42,002 nucleotides of DNA from a virus (Duplodnaviria > Heunggongvirae > Uroviricota > Caudoviricetes), in the IMG/VR virus record IMGVR_UViG_2563366918_000005; one strand, 5' to 3'. The translations under genes were made by a program, and so were the position numbers. The notes under the pieces are model-generated. The model saw only the letters and a list, made by a program, of their open reading frames with translations. It ran no database searches and had not been told where the DNA came from. Shown one piece after another: positions 2,000-36,568 of the stretch. How positions within the stretch are numbered: the stretch's first letter is position 1; each line of letters begins with the position of its first letter.

Positions 2000-2482
2000 C
2001 TATCTGGTCAGGGTGTCGTACTGTTTTTCACAGACTCTTCCGGCTTCGGCTGCCCGGTCAGCATACTCTGCCAGTTGTCTGTTTCTCTCGAGAGATTTAC
2101 TGAGCACGTCGGCAAGCAAAACTCCGGTGTCTGCGGCTGACGTCCCAGCGCCGACAATGGCGTTATACTGCCTGAGCTGCTCACGGATGGCAACGAGCTG
2201 TTGCTGCAACCGGCCAGCGCGAGCGGCAGCATCAAGAGCATCATTGCGCGCCTGGTCGATCCTCTGCTGCGCTTCACGTTCATTGATCGATTTCTCCTGT
2301 TCGTAGTGCTGACGAACTCTCTCATCTTCGGTTTTGCGGTCTTCTTTCGCCTGTGCATACCCGGCGTCGTACTGACGACTACCGTGTACATTCCAGGCAA
2401 CAACCCCTGATATGACCAGAACAGCAAGCACCGCCACGATAAGCAACTGTTTCCAGTATGCTTTTACGAATGCCCAGATCAT
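2000..2482 (-). CDS. i-spanin (Rz-like): N-terminal TM helix plus coiled coil
   Basis: 160 aa; TM segment [18 protein letters not shown] then charged coiled coil; start ATG overlaps endolysin stop (ATGA); last gene of the lysis cassette. Confidence 0.65.
2008..2244 (-). CDS. o-spanin (Rz1-like) lipoprotein, nested in the +1 frame of the Rz-like gene
   Basis: Internal start in track ORF 2008..2427 gives [13 protein letters not shown]… with lipobox LAGC; Pro/Ser-rich 78-aa product; fully embedded in the i-spanin gene. Confidence 0.6.
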   Translation of the reverse strand: MMLLMLPLALAGCSNSSLPSVSSSGSITPLSALGRQPQTPEFCLPTCSVNLSRETDNWQSMLTGQPKPEESVKNSTTP

Positions 2483-3108
2483 ACCGCCAGCACCTTACTG
2501 GCAGTGATGTACCGCGCTCTCCGGTCGTCGATGCCGTTCCTGCCACCATTGATAATCAAAGTTACACGTGCAATATCGCCGGTATACTTCATGCAACCTT
2601 TGCTGGAGAAGAACCACGCCGCGCTACGAGCCGCATATTCGTCCTGCGCTAACAGTTCAGGATTCTCCAGCAGGTCCACTTTCAGGCCGTTTCCGCAGTC
2701 ACGATAGTTATTCAAACCGGTAATCTGGATAAGTCCACGGCCTCGGTAATTCCAGCCGTCACCAGGGGAATTGTTCCCCATGCGTTTGCTGTACACCAGA
2801 TTGGCGATCGCTCGCTGGCGCTCGAGTGGCAATGGTGGTTCACCAGCACGGCGACCCAGTGCATTAGCCTGCCCCTGAGTGAGACGCCCAGCCCGAACGA
2901 AGTTAGCCAGACCGCTGACACTGTAGTTGAAATTCTCCTGCAATCTGGTGAAGCCCACAGATTCATGCCCGACCTGAGCAATAAACATTGCCAGATCTTC
3001 TGGTTTGCTGATACCAAACTCTTTCATCGCAGAAGTTATATGCGAGAACCAGCGTGCGGCCAGCGCCTCGCTAATACCAGCAGCTCGCTGGAATTGTTTA
3101 ATCTCCAT
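2479..3108 (-). CDS. Endolysin, glycoside hydrolase family 19 (chitinase-like lysozyme)
   Basis: Start at internal Met ([12 protein letters not shown]…) of track ORF 2479..3339; motif [10 protein letters not shown] typical of the GH19 catalytic region; sits between holins and spanins. Confidence 0.7.
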
Positions 3109-3406
3109 GTTTAGACCTCGATATTTTGAAAATCTGAACAACGTTACCGCGTGTTTTAATAACCGCGGCAAGCATGACAGCGTTGATAATGACCTCAGAT
3201 AAATCCACAGCCATTGGCGTGCGTAACCAGATTGCATAGACGACACGAACAGGAATACTGGCCGCAGCAACAATAAGGAAATAAGCAAGCCACCCTCCCC
3301 ATCTTCGATGTTGAGAGCCGTTACGCCGGAATGTGACAACGCGAATTGCTATGCCAGTACAAATAACTGCATTGGTGATAAGCAAAAAAAACTCATGCGT
3401 TACCAT
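3098..3406 (-). CDS. Second holin/antiholin-like small membrane protein
   Basis: 102 aa with about 3 hydrophobic helices; overlaps holin stop and endolysin start. Confidence 0.5.
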
Positions 3407-3972: not shown

Positions 3973-6579
3973 TTATTTCCTGCAAACTCCAGATGATGTT
4001 AATCCATCAAAAATAACCTGCACTCTGGCAATAACAACATCAACTCCAGAAGTCGTTTCACTTGCATAACCAAGTTTTATTTTAGATACAATATCCTGAG
4101 TAAGTTCAGATATTTCAGTTTCTGCAATGTTACCAGAGGCCATGTGATTATCGTATGCCATAGAATGAATTCCATTATTGACATCGATTGAACTAGTATG
4201 TTTGTGAAAAATAGATGGGTTTACCTGAAACGAATTTGAACCGATAAGATCAGAATATACTCCATTCATCACTGCAGTACAGCGTGGAATATTATTATCG
4301 GTTATTGTCATATGCAGACGGTTACCAGTTAACCCCTCACCAAGTGTGACATAATACGCCAATTCTCCACCTGCATATTGTTTCCCCTCAACAATAACAG
4401 TAATCCCTCTTAATTTCTGATTAGCTAGCAAAAACTTATTACTGTCTATATAGCATTTATTTGCGGAACCAAAAACAGCCCCTTCTAAAATATCTGATGA
4501 ATAGGAATAAATAAGGTCACCTGAAACAAAGGAAAGAATATCAGATACGTTTCCTTTTTTAGATAAGTTAGGAGAATAGCTATTAACTATTTCATATTGT
4601 CCTGTGATAAAATCAAGGTAAACGCCATCAGTTTTCATCTCTTTAAAGAAAATGCTATTAAAGCATCCATCAAGAACCGGTGGATATATTCTAGAGCTTG
4701 CATAAGCTGTTGGGTGATTCTTATTATTACCACTACCAGGCGAATAAACATCTTCGTTAGTCATTGACTTTTTAAGCTTAACAGGAATCATCGGCTGCAT
4801 ATCAATTTTGCAGTTCCCTGAACCACCGATGCGAGGATAAAATAAACCACCAAACCTTACAATATTACTACTGAATAGTATTTCGTTATCGTTAAGTGTT
4901 ATCTCAACGAAGTTTCCAATAAGTTTAAATTCAACTGAAAACAAACCAAGTGGAGCAGATAATTTAACAATATTGCGCATAAAAACACCTACAGTCCCTG
5001 TTGATGCAGTATAGTGTGTGGTTTCAAAGGCAGAGCCTGTATATTTCAAGTTAATGAAATTATTATGGTATGAAGACAATTGAAATTGAATCCCAGAACT
5101 AAGGATTTCAATATCTACAAATTGAATCCTTACGGAGTAAGCATATGATAAATCTTCATATTCATAAGGCAATGTAACATCTTTTGAAATAGTTGCCCTC
5201 ACATAATTACCAGAAACCACATCAATCCCATCACGTACAGCATTAAAGTAACGATTAAAATCAATAAGCCCAGCGCCAACATACTGCGCATATGACCGAG
5301 TCCATCCTGCCATTGCGTTTCGTCCATTCTGAGCTTCTAAACTGCTAAATTCAGAGTCACTTGTGGTACTTGATGGGAGGATATTTGTACAAAAAATAAT
5401 TTCAGGCATTGAAGTAATATCATTCAGTTCAGCCATCAATTTAAAAAAAGTTTTCTGCGGGAAGTTACCAACATCCCAACCATCTCCGTCATTCATGCCA
5501 AAAGCAATAATAACAACATCAGGGTTAATATCACGAATGTAATCAATCCAGCGTCTGTTCGTGTCTGAATACCATGGGTACTGTGAGTTATAAGAAGTAA
5601 TTGCTGGTGTATCTTTTCCAAGGTCATAGTACCTCATTCCACCAATTGCTCTGTTAAATAAAGTAGAACTTGGGAATTTCTCTTGCAAAACTCTCTTAAG
5701 ATGAGCGGCAAAAATGCTTGATCGATCCACTGTGCTTATATTATATGGGGCACTTAAGCTGTCACCAACTAACACTATTTTTGAGTTAGGCCTTGATAAT
5801 CTCTCAAGTGTTTTAGATGTGACTAAACTGCAGGAATTAATGAACTGAGTACTATTTAGCATCTGTTCAAGTGTATCACCAAATCTGGTACCAACGTATG
5901 ATGATCCGTTGACACTTGCTAGCTTAAGGCATAAATCAGCAGTATCTGTAATTGAAAAAATAGGAACAGGACGTCCTAAACTGTCATACCCCTGAATTGA
6001 GTTTGCCCTAGAAGATGCTGATGCCATTTCGCTTACTATCTCAGGGAAGCGGAGTGTTTTAGATATGTTGCTGTTAATAACTCCTTTGATAGATGAGTCT
6101 GTATATTTCTTCGTGGAAGCGTCCTGAGGAAATAATGGATCATCAAGGTTACGAATACGATTGCCGAGTGCATCGTAGTAAGTGGCACTAAATGATGGTT
6201 TACGAAGAGCCAGCCGAGCCATGCTTTTGACTAACTGGATCAGCATCGTTAGCTTATCAAAAGCATCCTCATGCACTTCCGCAAAGAACTTACCCTGATT
6301 GCGCAGATCAGTTTCCTGTGTAACCGGTAGCTCTCGTGATATAGAAATCTTATAGCCATTGGCCAACGCCTTCGACAATATTACATTTCCACCATTGTAT
6401 CCTCCGGCCCCGGTAACTATATAATCAGTATCAAGAGTCAGTACGGTGATATTTTCATGAATATCAACAACCTGCACAATCAAATCAGATTTATTGAAAA
6501 CCCTAAAGGCATACGGAAACGATGTCGTAACGCCGTTACCGGTGTATTCGTTGTGGTCAACTTCGGTTGAGACCGTCAT
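3973..6579 (-). CDS. Tailspike/tail fibre protein with central SGNH (GDSL) esterase-like domain
   Basis: 868 aa; RBS GGAG 7 nt before ATG 6579; N-terminal motif YTGNGVTTSFPYAF; central KIVLVGDSLSAPYN and VIIAFGMNDGDG blocks of SGNH hydrolases; C-terminal Ser/Asn/Gly-rich region; distal two thirds look AT-rich. Confidence 0.7.
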   Translation of the reverse strand: MTVSTEVDHNEYTGNGVTTSFPYAFRVFNKSDLIVQVVDIHENITVLTLDTDYIVTGAGGYNGGNVILSKALANGYKISISRELPVTQETDLRNQGKFFAEVHEDAFDKLTMLIQLVKSMARLALRKPSFSATYYDALGNRIRNLDDPLFPQDASTKKYTDSSIKGVINSNISKTLRFPEIVSEMASASSRANSIQGYDSLGRPVPIFSITDTADLCLKLASVNGSSYVGTRFGDTLEQMLNSTQFINSCSLVTSKTLERLSRPNSKIVLVGDSLSAPYNISTVDRSSIFAAHLKRVLQEKFPSSTLFNRAIGGMRYYDLGKDTPAITSYNSQYPWYSDTNRRWIDYIRDINPDVVIIAFGMNDGDGWDVGNFPQKTFFKLMAELNDITSMPEIIFCTNILPSSTTSDSEFSSLEAQNGRNAMAGWTRSYAQYVGAGLIDFNRYFNAVRDGIDVVSGNYVRATISKDVTLPYEYEDLSYAYSVRIQFVDIEILSSGIQFQLSSYHNNFINLKYTGSAFETTHYTASTGTVGVFMRNIVKLSAPLGLFSVEFKLIGNFVEITLNDNEILFSSNIVRFGGLFYPRIGGSGNCKIDMQPMIPVKLKKSMTNEDVYSPGSGNNKNHPTAYASSRIYPPVLDGCFNSIFFKEMKTDGVYLDFITGQYEIVNSYSPNLSKKGNVSDILSFVSGDLIYSYSSDILEGAVFGSANKCYIDSNKFLLANQKLRGITVIVEGKQYAGGELAYYVTLGEGLTGNRLHMTITDNNIPRCTAVMNGVYSDLIGSNSFQVNPSIFHKHTSSIDVNNGIHSMAYDNHMASGNIAETEISELTQDIVSKIKLGYASETTSGVDVVIARVQVIFDGLTSSGVCRK

Positions 6580-6682
6580 GTTAAATCTCCAGATAGTCGC
6601 AGCACCCGTTGCGCCGCATATCTGGTTATTCTATTACCTGAAAAACCATATATGTATAGAAAGACTATAAATACCAATAGAT

Positions 6683-6699
6683 ATTACCTTTATGGTAAT
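6683..6699. promoter_or_regulatory. Operator palindrome ATTACCTTTATGGTAAT
   Basis: Perfect 6-5-6 inverted repeat in the divergent tailspike / ant-like intergenic region. Confidence 0.5.
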
Positions 6700-6735
6700 T
6701 TGCAAAACGTGCTGGATAGCAAACAAATTATTTGA

Positions 6736-6755
6736 TACTGTATAAATATACAGTT
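6736..6755. promoter_or_regulatory. LexA (SOS) box TACTGTATAAATATACAGTT
   Basis: Perfect CTGT-N8-ACAG with AT-rich spacer; about 20 bp upstream of RBS GGAG (6763-6766) and ATG 6775. Confidence 0.7.
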
Positions 6756-6774
6756 ATTGCATGGAGAAGATAAG

Positions 6775-7032
6775 ATGCAGCGGTATCACTATCCACTGGA
6801 AGACGGATTTACCGAAAGGATTCACACGCCGGGAGGCGTCAGGTCACTGGTGGAGGGATCGCACTTGATGAAATTACTCCGGGATCTCGATAAGGATGGA
6901 TTTAATGTCGATGGCCCACTTGCCGAACTGACTGCACTGATTAACTACGTCACCAGCTCACAGATGTCTATGCGGGATCTGCAAACACATCTCGACTATT
7001 GTGCCGAACAATTACGAAAACAAACCAGATAA
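6775..7032 (+). CDS. Small antirepressor-like protein (standalone homolog of Ant C-terminal domain); SOS-controlled candidate
   Basis: 85 aa from ATG 6775; aligns by eye with the C-terminus of the 7347..8039 product (HTPGGVRSLVEGSHLMKLL…LRDLQTH versus HSPSGVLGLTENSLLMNLL…LRDIQTH); preceded by the LexA box. Confidence 0.6.
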   Translation: MQRYHYPLEDGFTERIHTPGGVRSLVEGSHLMKLLRDLDKDGFNVDGPLAELTALINYVTSSQMSMRDLQTHLDYCAEQLRKQTR

Positions 7033-7062
7033 GGTTTGCAATTACCAAGTGGAGTGCTTATA

Positions 7063-7079
7063 TTTACCTTTGAGGTAAA
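7063..7079. promoter_or_regulatory. Operator palindrome TTTACCTTTGAGGTAAA
   Basis: Perfect inverted repeat of the same family, between the two ant-like genes. Confidence 0.45.
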
Positions 7080-7171
7080 TTTACATCGCACTCCTCTTGT
7101 GCCATAGTAATCGGGCACTGGCAAAATCCAGTGCCGGGATTGGTCTCCCGGATTACTACAGAGGCACATAT

Positions 7172-7192
7172 GCCGCATAAGCGGTTTTTTTT
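7172..7192 (+). terminator. Putative rho-independent terminator
   Basis: CCGC-ATAA-GCGG stem followed by a T8 run; a further hairpin lies at about 7112-7144. Confidence 0.4.
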
Positions 7193-7346
7193 ATGTGTAA
7201 AGCGCACCTATTCTATGGTGGGCTGTGTGGGGGCACCGAAAGGTGCGCCGGGTTCCTTTGTAGCCGGTAAGACCAACTCTGCACAGTTCACCACCATCTG
7301 ATTGGTCTCAGCGGTGGTGATTAACCTAACTACAAAGGTGATCGCC

Positions 7347-8039
7347 ATGAATACCAAACCTTCCATCTTTTCCTTTGAGTCATCCTGCCAGATCCGTATG
7401 TTCATGATTGACGGAGAACCTTGGTTTGTCACCAAAGATGTGTGCAATGCTTTGAATATTGATGTTACACAAGCGAGAAAACTTGATAAAAAAGGCTGGA
7501 ACAAAAAGGGGCTGTATTCAATACAGACCCCTGGTGGAATACAAGAACTATCCATCGTTTCAGAATCAGGTCTCTACATCCTTATTCTGCGTTGCAAAGA
7601 GGCAATGACTGAGGGAACGAGAGCATTCAGATTTCTTGAATGGGTTACAGGCGAGGTTCTTCCTCAGATCCGCCGCACCGGAAGTTACATTAAAAACTCG
7701 CTACCGCAGGAAGAACGCATAAAGATGGTTGCCGACCAGGTAGCCAACGCCACGGCGTCAGCAGTAATGCAGGCGATGAAGATAGAGAACAAAACCTACA
7801 ACGCCCCGCTGAAGCCCGGCTACCGCAGCCTGATTCATTCCCCGTCTGGTGTTCTCGGCCTGACGGAGAACTCACTGCTGATGAATCTGCTGAACCAGTT
7901 ACAGGAAGACGGGCACGACGTATCGGGCGCGGCGGCGGAGCTGACCACCATGTTCTGCTACATCGTCGGTGTGAGCAAATGCCTGCGTGATATCCAGACG
8001 CACGCGGAGTACATCAACGACAAAGCAGGGTTCTTCTGA
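7347..8039 (+). CDS. Antirepressor (N-terminal BRO-N domain, C-terminal Ant/KilAC domain)
   Basis: RBS GGTGA 5 nt before ATG 7347; N-terminus FSFESSCQIRMFMIDGEPWFVTKDVCNALNI matches the BRO-N pattern; C-terminal domain paralogous to 6775..7032. Confidence 0.7.
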   Translation: MNTKPSIFSFESSCQIRMFMIDGEPWFVTKDVCNALNIDVTQARKLDKKGWNKKGLYSIQTPGGIQELSIVSESGLYILILRCKEAMTEGTRAFRFLEWVTGEVLPQIRRTGSYIKNSLPQEERIKMVADQVANATASAVMQAMKIENKTYNAPLKPGYRSLIHSPSGVLGLTENSLLMNLLNQLQEDGHDVSGAAAELTTMFCYIVGVSKCLRDIQTHAEYINDKAGFF

Positions 8040-8103
8040 CGGGCGGCGGCACAGGGATGTGCCTTTAAATAATTCTGTACAGATTGCAGGTGAATAGCTT
8101 ACT

Positions 8104-8120
8104 ATTACCTCACGGGTGAT
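8104..8120. promoter_or_regulatory. Operator-like imperfect palindrome ATTACCTCACGGGTGAT
   Basis: Left half perfect, right half GGTGAT; lies upstream of the mini-ORF and the 8249 gene. Confidence 0.3.
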
Positions 8121-8156
8121 CCATAGCGATTAGGCACCGATACAGGAGGAGCCCAC

Positions 8157-8189
8157 ATGAGAAAATTTGACGAGTACGAAGGCGTTTAA
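8157..8189 (+). other. 10-codon mini-ORF (MRKFDEYEGV) with strong SD; leader-peptide candidate
   Basis: AGGAGG at 8144-8149, 7 nt before ATG 8157; stop at 8187-8189; followed by the hairpin at 8208-8231. Confidence 0.3.
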
Positions 8190-8207
8190 CATTCGGATAG
8201 TTTAATG

Positions 8208-8248: not shown

Positions 8249-8788
8249 GTGTTAAGTGAAGAAATGCAATTTGCCATGGCTGTGGCTCAAATCGTAAGTG
8301 CAGTCGCGGTTTCGCTTGGCTTGTTCATAGCTATCGCTACTATTATTTATAATGTAAATACAGCGAGAAAAGTACACACTTCAGTATTCCTTGGTGAAAG
8401 CAGGTTTGATGTAGATTATAAGAAAGGCCTATCTACTATGCGCCGCATTCACGAATCGAACAAATCATTCCGCTCTTATATGTATCCAAGCAATGGGCAG
8501 GCTGATCTTACGGATGAAGAAAAGACAGAGAAGAGAGAAATAATTTACTGTCTAGGTTTCTACGAACGCATGGCTGTGAGCGTGAAGCGGAAAACTTATG
8601 ATGAGACCATGATTAAGGAAGTATTTTACAGCTCCGTTGTAAATAACTATCAGATTGCGCTACCTCTTATACAAGCCATTAGAGAAAAAGAAAACATAAA
8701 CACATATTTTAAAGAATATGAATGGTTGGCCACACGATGGAAGGATTGCCCATTGAAGGATAAATCCCCGTGGTACAAGTTTTGGTAA
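8249..8788 (+). CDS. Hypothetical membrane-anchored protein (AT-rich accessory gene; exclusion/defence candidate)
   Basis: RBS GGAGA 6 nt before GTG 8249 (alternative ATG 8264); N-terminal TM helix AVAQIVSAVAVSLGLFIAIATIIY then about 140-aa soluble domain; visibly AT-rich; followed by a terminator-like T-run at about 8789-8811. Confidence 0.55.
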   Translation: MLSEEMQFAMAVAQIVSAVAVSLGLFIAIATIIYNVNTARKVHTSVFLGESRFDVDYKKGLSTMRRIHESNKSFRSYMYPSNGQADLTDEEKTEKREIIYCLGFYERMAVSVKRKTYDETMIKEVFYSSVVNNYQIALPLIQAIREKENINTYFKEYEWLATRWKDCPLKDKSPWYKFW

Positions 8789-33523: not shown

Positions 33524-34324
33524 TTACTTGATAAATCCTGCCGCCTTTCCTCGCCTGTATTCCTCCATCAGCCACTGCGCCGGTGTTATTCCCCCAAGGG
33601 TGGCGGCGTTAGGCATGCACCCGAAACTTCGCCCTGGTGGATGGTAAACGTCTCTCCCTGTGTCCGGAGGCGTACTCATGGGTTCTGGCTTTGCCTGTAT
33701 GCTGATCACCGGATCGGGTATCTGCTGTCCGGAAGCCACCTTTTTCGCCCAATCATCGAGCAGCCTGCGCGCGTGTTTCTCAACCTCTATCTCGCTAAGC
33801 TGGCGCTGATACATTGCACGGCGGGTATCACATACGACCCAGTACATAACCGGATGCCGCCACGGGAATCTTTCGGGACCACCAGGATATAAACTTTTTT
33901 CCTTGCTGTACCGGTGAAACTCCGTCATCACATCGTCAATGGTGACGCCAAGAACCATCTTGCTGTCTTTGCACCACTTGATGAATTGCCCTGGCGACGG
34001 CCAGAACGGAGAATCACTGGCGCGGGCGTGGCGCATACCAGCAGAAACCTGTTCACGGGTTCGGATCCCCCCTTCGGCAAACGCAGCAATCCACTGCTGT
34101 TTTGCAGCAACTTCCTGCTCTGGCGTCTTCAGGTTGGTTACCACTGCCGCCGGAAACAGTTGTTTCAACTGTTTGAAAAGGGCATCAACAAGCCTCTCTG
34201 CTGACATGTTCACTACGTTGTCATTGTTGACGTACTGATGCTCATAACCTGACATGCGAGAAAGGGCTTCTCCGTCACGGTTTTGTATTGCGGTAAAAAC
34301 GTTGTTCACAAGAAATCCTCCCAT
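33524..34324 (-). CDS. Replication protein P-like (helicase loader)
   Basis: Block …KQQWIAAFAEGGIRTREQVSAGMRHARASDSPFWPSPGQFIKWC… parallels lambda P (…RRQWVLAFRENGITTMEQVNAGMRVARRQNRPFLPSPGQFVAWC…) as remembered; start may be at an internal Met (34255). Confidence 0.7.
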   Translation of the reverse strand: MGGFLVNNVFTAIQNRDGEALSRMSGYEHQYVNNDNVVNMSAERLVDALFKQLKQLFPAAVVTNLKTPEQEVAAKQQWIAAFAEGGIRTREQVSAGMRHARASDSPFWPSPGQFIKWCKDSKMVLGVTIDDVMTEFHRYSKEKSLYPGGPERFPWRHPVMYWVVCDTRRAMYQRQLSEIEVEKHARRLLDDWAKKVASGQQIPDPVISIQAKPEPMSTPPDTGRDVYHPPGRSFGCMPNAATLGGITPAQWLMEEYRRGKAAGFIK

Positions 34325-35729: not shown

Positions 35730-35746
35730 TTCACCCATAAGGTAAC
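35730..35746. promoter_or_regulatory. Operator (weak) TTCACCCATAAGGTAAC
   Basis: One mismatch in left half. Confidence 0.3.
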
Positions 35747-35760
35747 AAAAATCAAGGATA

Positions 35761-35777
35761 GTTACCTATGAGGTGCA
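35761..35777. promoter_or_regulatory. Operator GTTACCTATGAGGTGCA
   Basis: Left half matches family; right half degenerate. Confidence 0.35.
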
Positions 35778-35794
35778 TTTACCTGTTGGGTAAT
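35778..35794. promoter_or_regulatory. Operator palindrome TTTACCTGTTGGGTAAT
   Basis: Near-perfect; with the two adjacent sites forms an OR-like triple operator between cro-like and repressor genes. Confidence 0.5.
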
Positions 35795-35848: not shown

Positions 35849-36433
35849 ATGAAAAGTATCCAGGACGTCCGCAGGCAAAATCTCAACGACTTGATCGACC
35901 GTGAATTCAATGGTGTTCAGACGCGGATGGCAGAAAAACTTGGAACTCAGGCAAATCTGGTAAACCGCTGGGCTCTTGGCAAGAAGGTTATCGGCGACCA
36001 GGTTGCACGAAAAATTGAAGCTGCCGCCAATAAACCCCGTAACTGGCTTGATATTGATCGCTCGCTTTCTCAGGAGGGTTTTCAGCCTGTCGGCCCGAGC
36101 GATATAGGTCAGCTGGCGGCTCACAACCTGGAACGCTGGATGAGCGAAAGCCGCGACCTTTCAACGCAGGGAAAACTACACCGCGCATCCGGCGTCGCCC
36201 AGGTGACAATCAGCCGCCTGTTAAACAATGAGGTCAGCGTTTCCATTTCCACCCTGGAGAATGTTGCATCCGCATTCGGGCGTCACGGCTATGAATTACT
36301 GATTCACCCGCACGACCCTGCGACCATCAACTATGATCGCTCGCGCTACGCATTGTTACCCGAAACCGAGAAAGCAAAGATCGAAAGTTACATTGAATTT
36401 GTCATCAACCAGAACGAAAAAAACAAACAATAA
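35849..36433 (+). CDS. Immunity repressor candidate with two HTH domains, no peptidase domain
   Basis: 194 aa; HTH-like segments (…QTRMAEKLGTQANLVNRWALGKK… and …LHRASGVAQVTISRLLNNE…); no Ala-Gly / Ser-Lys autocleavage module seen; sits between operator clusters. Confidence 0.6.
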   Translation: MKSIQDVRRQNLNDLIDREFNGVQTRMAEKLGTQANLVNRWALGKKVIGDQVARKIEAAANKPRNWLDIDRSLSQEGFQPVGPSDIGQLAAHNLERWMSESRDLSTQGKLHRASGVAQVTISRLLNNEVSVSISTLENVASAFGRHGYELLIHPHDPATINYDRSRYALLPETEKAKIESYIEFVINQNEKNKQ

Positions 36434-36489: not shown

Positions 36490-36506
36490 ATTACCTAATG
36501 GGTAAT
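36490..36506. promoter_or_regulatory. Operator palindrome ATTACCTAATGGGTAAT
   Basis: Perfect 6-5-6 palindrome upstream of -35 TTGACA. Confidence 0.5.
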
Positions 36507-36524
36507 TTTTTTAACTCATATCTA

Positions 36525-36552
36525 TTGACATCAAACCAGATACGCATAATTA
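36525..36552 (+). promoter_or_regulatory. PL-like early promoter (TTGACA-16-TAATTA)
   Basis: -35 TTGACA 36525-36530, -10 TAATTA 36547-36552, bracketed by operators. Confidence 0.5.
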
Positions 36553-36568
36553 TTACCTCAACGGTAAC
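36552..36568. promoter_or_regulatory. Operator ATTACCTCAACGGTAAC
   Basis: Overlaps the -10 / +1 of the PL-like promoter. Confidence 0.45.

Follow-up and report, generated by a model that had tools for sequence, protein, structure and literature searches.

A predicted SPC32H-type LexA/Ant/Rep lytic switch in an Escherichia coli Uetakevirus prophage

The closest described counterpart of the locus considered here is the LexA/Ant/Rep switch of Salmonella phage SPC32H, a member of the genus Uetakevirus. This switch was reportedly described by Kim and Ryu in 2013 (J Virol 87:11775), who are said to have found that the SPC32H Rep is not cleaved, and the Ant-Rep switch of the same phage was reportedly treated again by Kim et al. 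in 2016 (PNAS), with the PDB entries 5D4Z and 5D50. A differently wired antirepressor locus is the immI operon of phages P1 and P7, which consists of a C1-controlled promoter, the C4 antisense RNA, icd and ant. For the LexA/Ant/Rep type, a review (PMC7380047, citing Kim & Ryu 2013) states that self-cleavage of LexA allows Ant to be made and that Ant then inhibits the repressor by protein-protein contact. Rep is described as binding DNA as a tetramer, and tetrameric Ant as taking up two Rep dimers and thereby breaking the tetramer, in a second paper (PMC9638917); the order of the Rep domains, given in a third (PMC9986798), is DNA-binding, middle dimerisation, and C-terminal tetramerisation together with Ant binding.

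The window analysed here is a stretch of 42,002 nucleotides of viral DNA (IMG/VR record IMGVR_UViG_2563366918_000005). When positions 6400-8200 were compared with phage records by megablast, matches were obtained to phiV10, TL-2011b, ZX5, phiv142-3 and EC.W1-9 and, more distantly, to Enterobacter phage Tyrion and the Salmonella epsilon15 group. All of the phages matched are temperate podophages of the genus Uetakevirus, and the window is, judged by these similarities, a phiV10/epsilon15-like podophage of that genus and an E. coli prophage. Several E. coli genomes carry a chromosomal prophage that is 100% identical to the window over positions 6580-7040, and of 5426 complete E. coli genomes, 531 have the ant locus. 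DNA damage elicits a response in lysogens of E. coli Uetakevirus phages: the close relative ZX5 rose from 1e7 to 1e9 PFU/mL, or 100-fold, upon treatment with mitomycin C (PMC9782041), and a DNA-damaging microcin induced two Uetakevirus prophages 21- and 47-fold (2026 preprint). The small Ant is mentioned neither in the ZX5 paper (2022, PMC9782041), where induction was discussed without the small Ant, its LexA box or the RNAs, nor in the 2026 microcin preprint.

Comparison with SPC32H indicates with high confidence that the window carries a lytic switch of the SPC32H type. In a lysogen, Rep would bind operators of the form ATTACC-N5-GGTAAT and keep the lytic genes off, while host LexA would occupy a single SOS box over the ant promoter and keep Ant off. 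Upon DNA damage, RecA*-stimulated self-cleavage of LexA would permit transcription of ant. Ant, a tetramer in SPC32H, would bind the C-terminal domains of Rep dimers, and this binding would break up the DNA-binding Rep tetramer and lead to induction. Three domains are expected in Rep: the N-terminal one would bind DNA, the middle one, which is HTH-like, would mediate dimerisation, and the short C-terminal one would serve tetramerisation and Ant binding; as Rep lacks an S24 peptidase module, RecA*-stimulated self-cutting of Rep should be impossible. The same steps presumably operate in the E. coli phage. LexA binding of the box and the contact between Ant and Rep are carried over from SPC32H by analogy, and release of Rep from its operators by Ant would follow from the close identity of the two Ant proteins and the conservation of the Rep C-terminus. 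The coordinates of the features are collected in Table 1.

Table 1. Features of the predicted switch and of the adjoining antirepressor module (positions in the window)
Feature	Position	Strand	Evidence
Operator-like TTACC-N5-GGTAA palindrome between tailspike gene and ant	6684-6698	.	kept in 9 of 9 phages
Predicted ant promoter: -35-like TGGATA (6713-6718), 17-nt spacer, extended -10 TG-n-TACTGT (6733-6741)	6713-6741	+	conservation
LexA (SOS) box TACTGTATAAATATACAGTT	6736-6755	.	18/20 against E. coli consensus, unique, conserved position
Ribosome-binding site GGAG of ant	6763-6766	+	constant in intergenic alignment; 8 nt before ATG
ant, 85-aa antirepressor, SPC32H Ant orthologue	6775-7032	+	PDB match, tblastn, synteny
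Promoter-like TTGCAA-17-TATATT and TTTACA-17-CATAGT around operator-like palindrome 7064-7078	7036-7108	+	function predicted
isrK-like RNA with its own terminator	7115-7191	+	Rfam RF01394, 74.7 bits, gathering score 50
C4-type antisense RNA (P1/P7 immI type)	7211-7298	+	Rfam RF01695, 78.6 bits, gathering score 45
Second antirepressor, BRO-N domain and Ant-like C-terminus, 230 aa	7347-8039	+	Pfam Bro-N E 1.6e-13; 43% identity to Ant
rep, 194-aa immunity repressor, SPC32H Rep homologue	35849-36433	+	5D50_A match, Pfam
Two operator-like palindromes 5' of rep	35731-35793	.	motif count, comparison with SPC32H rep
Two operator-like palindromes 3' of rep	36491-36567	.	motif count, comparison with SPC32H rep
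Operator-like 15-mers (start positions)	6684, 7064, 25637, 26254, 29951, 33410, 33472, 35394, 35731, 35779, 36491, 36553		

The product of ant has a single match among solved structures: residues 2-84 align with chain E of PDB 5D50, 'Anti-repressor protein', with an E value of 3.5e-46. A tblastn comparison gave 87% identity with the product of the gene annotated as ant in SPC32H (SPC32H_020, GenBank KC911856), so that the window has a small Ant of the kind that defines the group (about 86 aa and homologous to SPC32H Ant). Gene order agrees as well. In the window as in SPC32H, ant is divergent from the tailspike gene; it is located between that gene and the late operon, and rep lies in a distant immunity region. 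No Tum-related family or structure was encountered among the Ant matches in PDB, Pfam and PHROGs, and neither Ant nor the neighbouring BRO-N protein nor the DUF4760 cargo gene beyond it gave a match to defence systems. The first-pass annotation, made from the sequence without database searches, had described the 85-aa ORF as homologous to the C-terminal part of the neighbouring BRO-N antirepressor, and this homology was recovered: residues 2-75 of Ant align with residues 149-222 of the BRO-N protein at 43% identity over 74 residues (E 8e-17), and both proteins match phrog_450 (PHROG 450, 'unknown function').

The BRO-N protein belongs to a second module, directly 3' of ant, in which an isrK-like RNA and a C4-type RNA precede the protein-coding gene. 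The palindrome 7064-7078 at its promoter-like sequences is kept in six E. coli loci, and a terminator-like site of the isrK-like RNA is found at 7172-7185. The C4 RNA has a fold z-score of -4.6. One of its loops (7255-7263) is complementary to positions 7330-7338, which cover the Shine-Dalgarno sequence of the BRO-N gene, and another (7270-7276) to positions 7302-7308; both targets lie just before the start of the BRO-N gene. A comparison of six E. coli variants shows that loops and targets co-vary, with compensatory substitutions in both pairs: AGACCAA/TTGGTCT is replaced by ACGCCAA/TTGGCGT, and CCTTTGTAG/CTACAAAGG by CCTTTTAG/CTAAAAGG in phiV10 and by CCACTTAG/CTAAGTGG in strain CS6L. Such co-variation speaks well for translational control of the BRO-N/Ant-like protein by the C4 RNA, in the manner known for icd-ant in P1. 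The module resembles P1/P7 immI in that a C4-family RNA stands 5' of an antirepressor gene, with two loops facing two sites of the ribosome-binding region, and in the repressor-operator-like site at the promoter. It differs from immI in having a BRO-N/Ant-like fusion in place of icd-ant1/2, an isrK-like RNA before C4, and operators that are Rep-like and not of the C1 type. It is also similar to the isrK-orf45-anrP segment of Gifsy-1 (Hershko-Shalev et al. 2016, PMC4825925), which has an isrK-family RNA, a leaky terminator and an antirepressor-type gene further 3', whereas in the window a C4 RNA is inserted between isrK and the antirepressor gene.

The cargo carried next to the BRO-N gene, on its 3' side, varies between prophages. 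In the window this slot contains the gene of a DUF4760 protein (8249-8788), for which PADLOC returned no match, and in other E. coli prophage loci a YafO-family toxin pair (4590-5415 in one locus, from position 3228 in two). A further, strong RNA match, to the Hfq-binding sRNA STnc490, is located on the minus strand of the window at 1687-1810 (Rfam 146 bits, gathering score 56).

A second antirepressor gene next to ant could share or take over its role. It might be, for instance, that the BRO-N/Ant-like protein drives induction and that the small LexA-controlled ORF is accessory, acting as a modulator or a decoy. The sole experiment in an E. coli member was indeed performed with the large protein: when ZX5 ORF4 was over-expressed, lysogens fell from 1e9 to 1e6, a drop of about 1000-fold (PMC9782041). 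ZX5 ORF4 is 80% identical overall to the BRO-N protein of the window, from which it differs by a single residue from residue 104 on, and it carries the same Ant-like domain. This explanation is nevertheless very unlikely, for SPC32H and epsilon15 lack the entire isrK/C4/BRO-N module, with its BRO-N gene, yet keep ant and the LexA box. In phiV10, moreover, the product of the BRO-N gene (locus positions 2446-3125) can be aligned with that of the window only as far as residue 180, beyond which the two diverge, and a 90-bp ORF follows; as the truncation falls within the Ant-like domain, the type phage is probably without a functional second antirepressor, while its small ant is intact. Scans of the window detected no LexA box upstream of the BRO-N gene, and what this gene has in its place, a C4 antisense RNA preceded by an operator-like palindrome, is wiring for the control of immunity or superinfection and not for SOS sensing.

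The small ant gene, which we regard as the SOS-responsive element of an SPC32H-type switch, does possess such a box. The first-pass annotation had placed a LexA box in front of the 85-aa ORF, and the site is real: TACTGTATAAATATACAGTT has two mismatches to the 20-nt E. coli LexA consensus TACTGTATATATATACAGTA, it is the sole site with three or fewer mismatches in the 42-kb window, and none of 100 shuffles produced any such site. The distance had been given as about 20 bp to the ribosome-binding site, which needs correction, as the box ends 7 nt from GGAG and 19 nt from the ATG of ant. The bare pattern CTGT-N8-ACAG, by which the box had been recognised, is weaker evidence and unconvincing by itself: it occurs twice in the window against 0.5 expected, and two such sites were present in 12% of shuffles. 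The second occurrence, at 21624-21639, was rejected as a LexA box, its spacer being GC-rich and the site having no TA/TA flanks. A relaxed search of the window for ACTGT-N8-ACAGT found nothing further except a chance match in a coding region at 34143.

The best match to the LexA consensus was also located in 14 related loci in addition to the window, and the tailspike-ant intergenic region was aligned for nine phages of E. coli, Salmonella, Enterobacter and Klebsiella. The box has kept its position throughout. Its spacing to the ant ATG is 19 nt in 12 of the 14 loci (E. coli, Salmonella and Enterobacter) and 18 nt in the two Klebsiella phages. The CTGT/ACAG arms are constant in the 14 loci except in these two Klebsiella phages and in SPC32N, and, SPC32N again excepted, TACTGT and ACAGT are kept across the E. 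coli, Salmonella and Enterobacter loci, while the central eight bases occur in at least eight versions. A nearly fixed spacing to ant together with kept arms and a drifting spacer points to selection on a LexA site that is tied to ant. The ZX5 box agrees with the consensus at 17 of 20 positions. In the Klebsiella phages the left arm reads ATGT for CTGT, and the box, ATATGTATATATATACAGTA, occupies positions 1457-1476 of both loci.

The loci of SPC32H and SPC32N differ by two nucleotides in 3.2 kb, and one of the two is a C-to-A change in the LexA box that turns ACAG into AAAG. Kim and Ryu reportedly found in 2013 that only two nucleotides distinguish the entire genomes of these phages, and a single mutation of the LexA site is said to make the phage lytic through constitutive production of Ant. 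The difference seen between the two loci is consistent with that result.

The promoter of ant is predicted from the same alignment, in which CTGGATAG and TG-n-TAC are constant or almost so. The extended -10 would share bases with the left arm of the box, and with this layout LexA would cover both the -10 and the transcription start. A scan for consensus sigma-70 promoters called none at the LexA box, with neither TGGATA nor TTGCAA (6700-6705, a possible alternative -35); the basis of the promoter model is conservation. A block TCTATTACC...AACCATATATG at 6627-6660, flanked by the start of the tailspike gene on one side and the operator-like palindrome on the other, is kept in nine of nine phages. 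Read on the minus strand it gives ...GGTAATAGAAT, and it might thus contain a half-operator and the promoter of the tailspike gene.

Because the box lies within a 195-bp divergent region common to the tailspike gene and ant, in which no consensus promoter was called, it might serve the tailspike gene or another target, or be a non-functional relic. This is highly improbable in view of its distances, 19 nt to the ant ATG against 157 nt to the start codon of the tailspike gene, of a spacing to ant that is fixed within 1 nt over 14 loci, and of the point change of SPC32N, which falls in this very box. LexA control of ant remains the preferred reading of the site.

The repressor on which Ant would act is likewise related to a crystallised protein. 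Residues 1-190 of Rep match 5D50_A, 'Repressor', with an E value of 4e-42, and the C-terminal fragment 5D4Z_A with an E value of 4e-20; the homologue in SPC32H is the annotated rep (SPC32H_041, GenBank KC911856). Identity to SPC32H Rep is 42% overall; by domain it amounts to 53% (N-terminal), 31% (middle) and 52% (C-terminal), and in the alignment Phe187 and Phe190 of the SPC32H tetramer interface correspond to Tyr181 and Phe184 in the window. Since overall identity is 42% and that of the middle domain 31%, the Ant-Rep interface is assumed for the Rep of the window. The protein is 100% identical to the repressors of phiV10 and ZX5. Its Pfam matches are HTH_3 (central), HTH_26, LacI and YdaS-like only, and the N-terminal region is HTH-like. 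The earlier description of this ORF as a double-HTH protein with no recognisable peptidase module is borne out by HTH-type matches in both halves and by a Pfam search that found no Peptidase_S24 or LexA-like module. That Rep might instead be inactivated by RecA-stimulated cleavage at a cryptic site, with Ant dispensable, is scarcely credible, as the lambda paradigm was all that could be found to speak for it, whereas Rep, besides having no Peptidase_S24/LexA-like domain, aligns over its full length with SPC32H Rep, whose C-terminus is devoted to tetramerisation and Ant binding.

TTACC-N5-GGTAA palindromes occur 15 times in the window against 0.73 expected and cluster around rep and in several intergenic regions. 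SPC32H rep is flanked by ATTACC-N5-GGTAAT, with the same half-sites as in the window, and the epsilon15 counterpart of the palindrome between the tailspike gene and ant is annotated as a protein_bind feature, 'repressor'. These palindromes are probably Rep operators. A phage-borne tRNA-Arg gene (anticodon TCT) is located on the plus strand at 25974-26050, and two of the operator-like palindromes (25637 and 26254) are close to it. As the half-sites are the same despite only 42% identity of the repressors, one may ask whether the E. coli and Salmonella members share immunity or can induce one another.

Taken over the whole locus, the window agrees with SPC32H in genus, in gene order, in an Ant of 87% identity, in full-length homology of Rep, in the 19 nt from box to ATG, and in the ATTACC-N5-GGTAAT half-sites. 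It is distinguished from SPC32H by its host, E. coli, by a Rep of only 42% identity, by the N8 spacer of the box, and by the extra isrK/C4/BRO-N antirepressor module directly 3' of ant. The mechanism put forward in the first-pass annotation, SOS induction through a LexA-derepressed antirepressor, is thus very probably right, the two proteins being orthologues of the crystallised SPC32H pair and the box being conserved. The accompanying statement that this had not been described for phages of this type does not hold, since SPC32H, of the same genus, has a published LexA/Ant/Rep switch, and ant and rep are annotated in KC911856. Because such a switch has been published for the same genus, it counts as already known; the LexA/Ant/Rep finding is no new biology and represents an SPC32H-type switch in an E. 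coli relative.

The same annotation had likened the locus to coliphage 186 Tum and to Gifsy/Fels-type phages, a likeness that is valid for function, while no relation in sequence was found. With the Tum/CI system of 186 it shares the logic of a LexA-repressed small antirepressor set against a non-cleavable repressor, a system cited in the review mentioned above (PMC7380047). It is unlike Tum in that no sequence similarity was detected in PDB, Pfam or PHROGs, and 186 is a P2-like myovirus. In Gifsy-1, Gifsy-3 and Fels-2 (Lemire et al. 2011, PMC3121763) LexA-controlled antirepressors also act by protein-protein contact on non-cleavable repressors, and cross-talk between prophages by way of these antirepressors is possible (PMC3121763). 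The protein families are different there, and the phages are lambdoid or P2-like, in a comparison drawn entirely from the literature.

Judged from the domain shared by Ant and the BRO-N protein, these phages appear to carry two antirepressors with one Rep-binding domain, one of them under SOS control and the other under control of the repressor and an antisense RNA. A tentative reading, which we consider possible rather than probable, is that the E. coli, Enterobacter and Klebsiella members, in contrast to SPC32H and epsilon15, use the Ant domain twice, with two inputs: once as the separate Ant, answering to LexA and hence to SOS, and once as the C-terminus of the BRO-N protein, behind a promoter with a Rep operator, an isrK-like RNA and the C4 RNA. 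Being derepressed from Rep, the second copy could be a feed-forward amplifier that commits the switch once LexA-controlled Ant has begun it; alternatively, it could act upon superinfection as an anti-immunity device like immI of P1. No description of a two-tier antirepressor circuit was found for these phages in the literature searched, and the C4-controlled second antirepressor is the only part of the locus that might repay experiments.

The practical value of the finding lies in annotation. In all E. coli records among the matches listed, the ant orthologue is labelled 'hypothetical protein', and the gene is hidden under that name. Serotype conversion is a trait of some of these E. coli Uetakevirus prophages, and proper names for these genes would make the SOS-inducibility of Uetakevirus prophages, carried by about 10% of E. 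coli strains, predictable from sequence.
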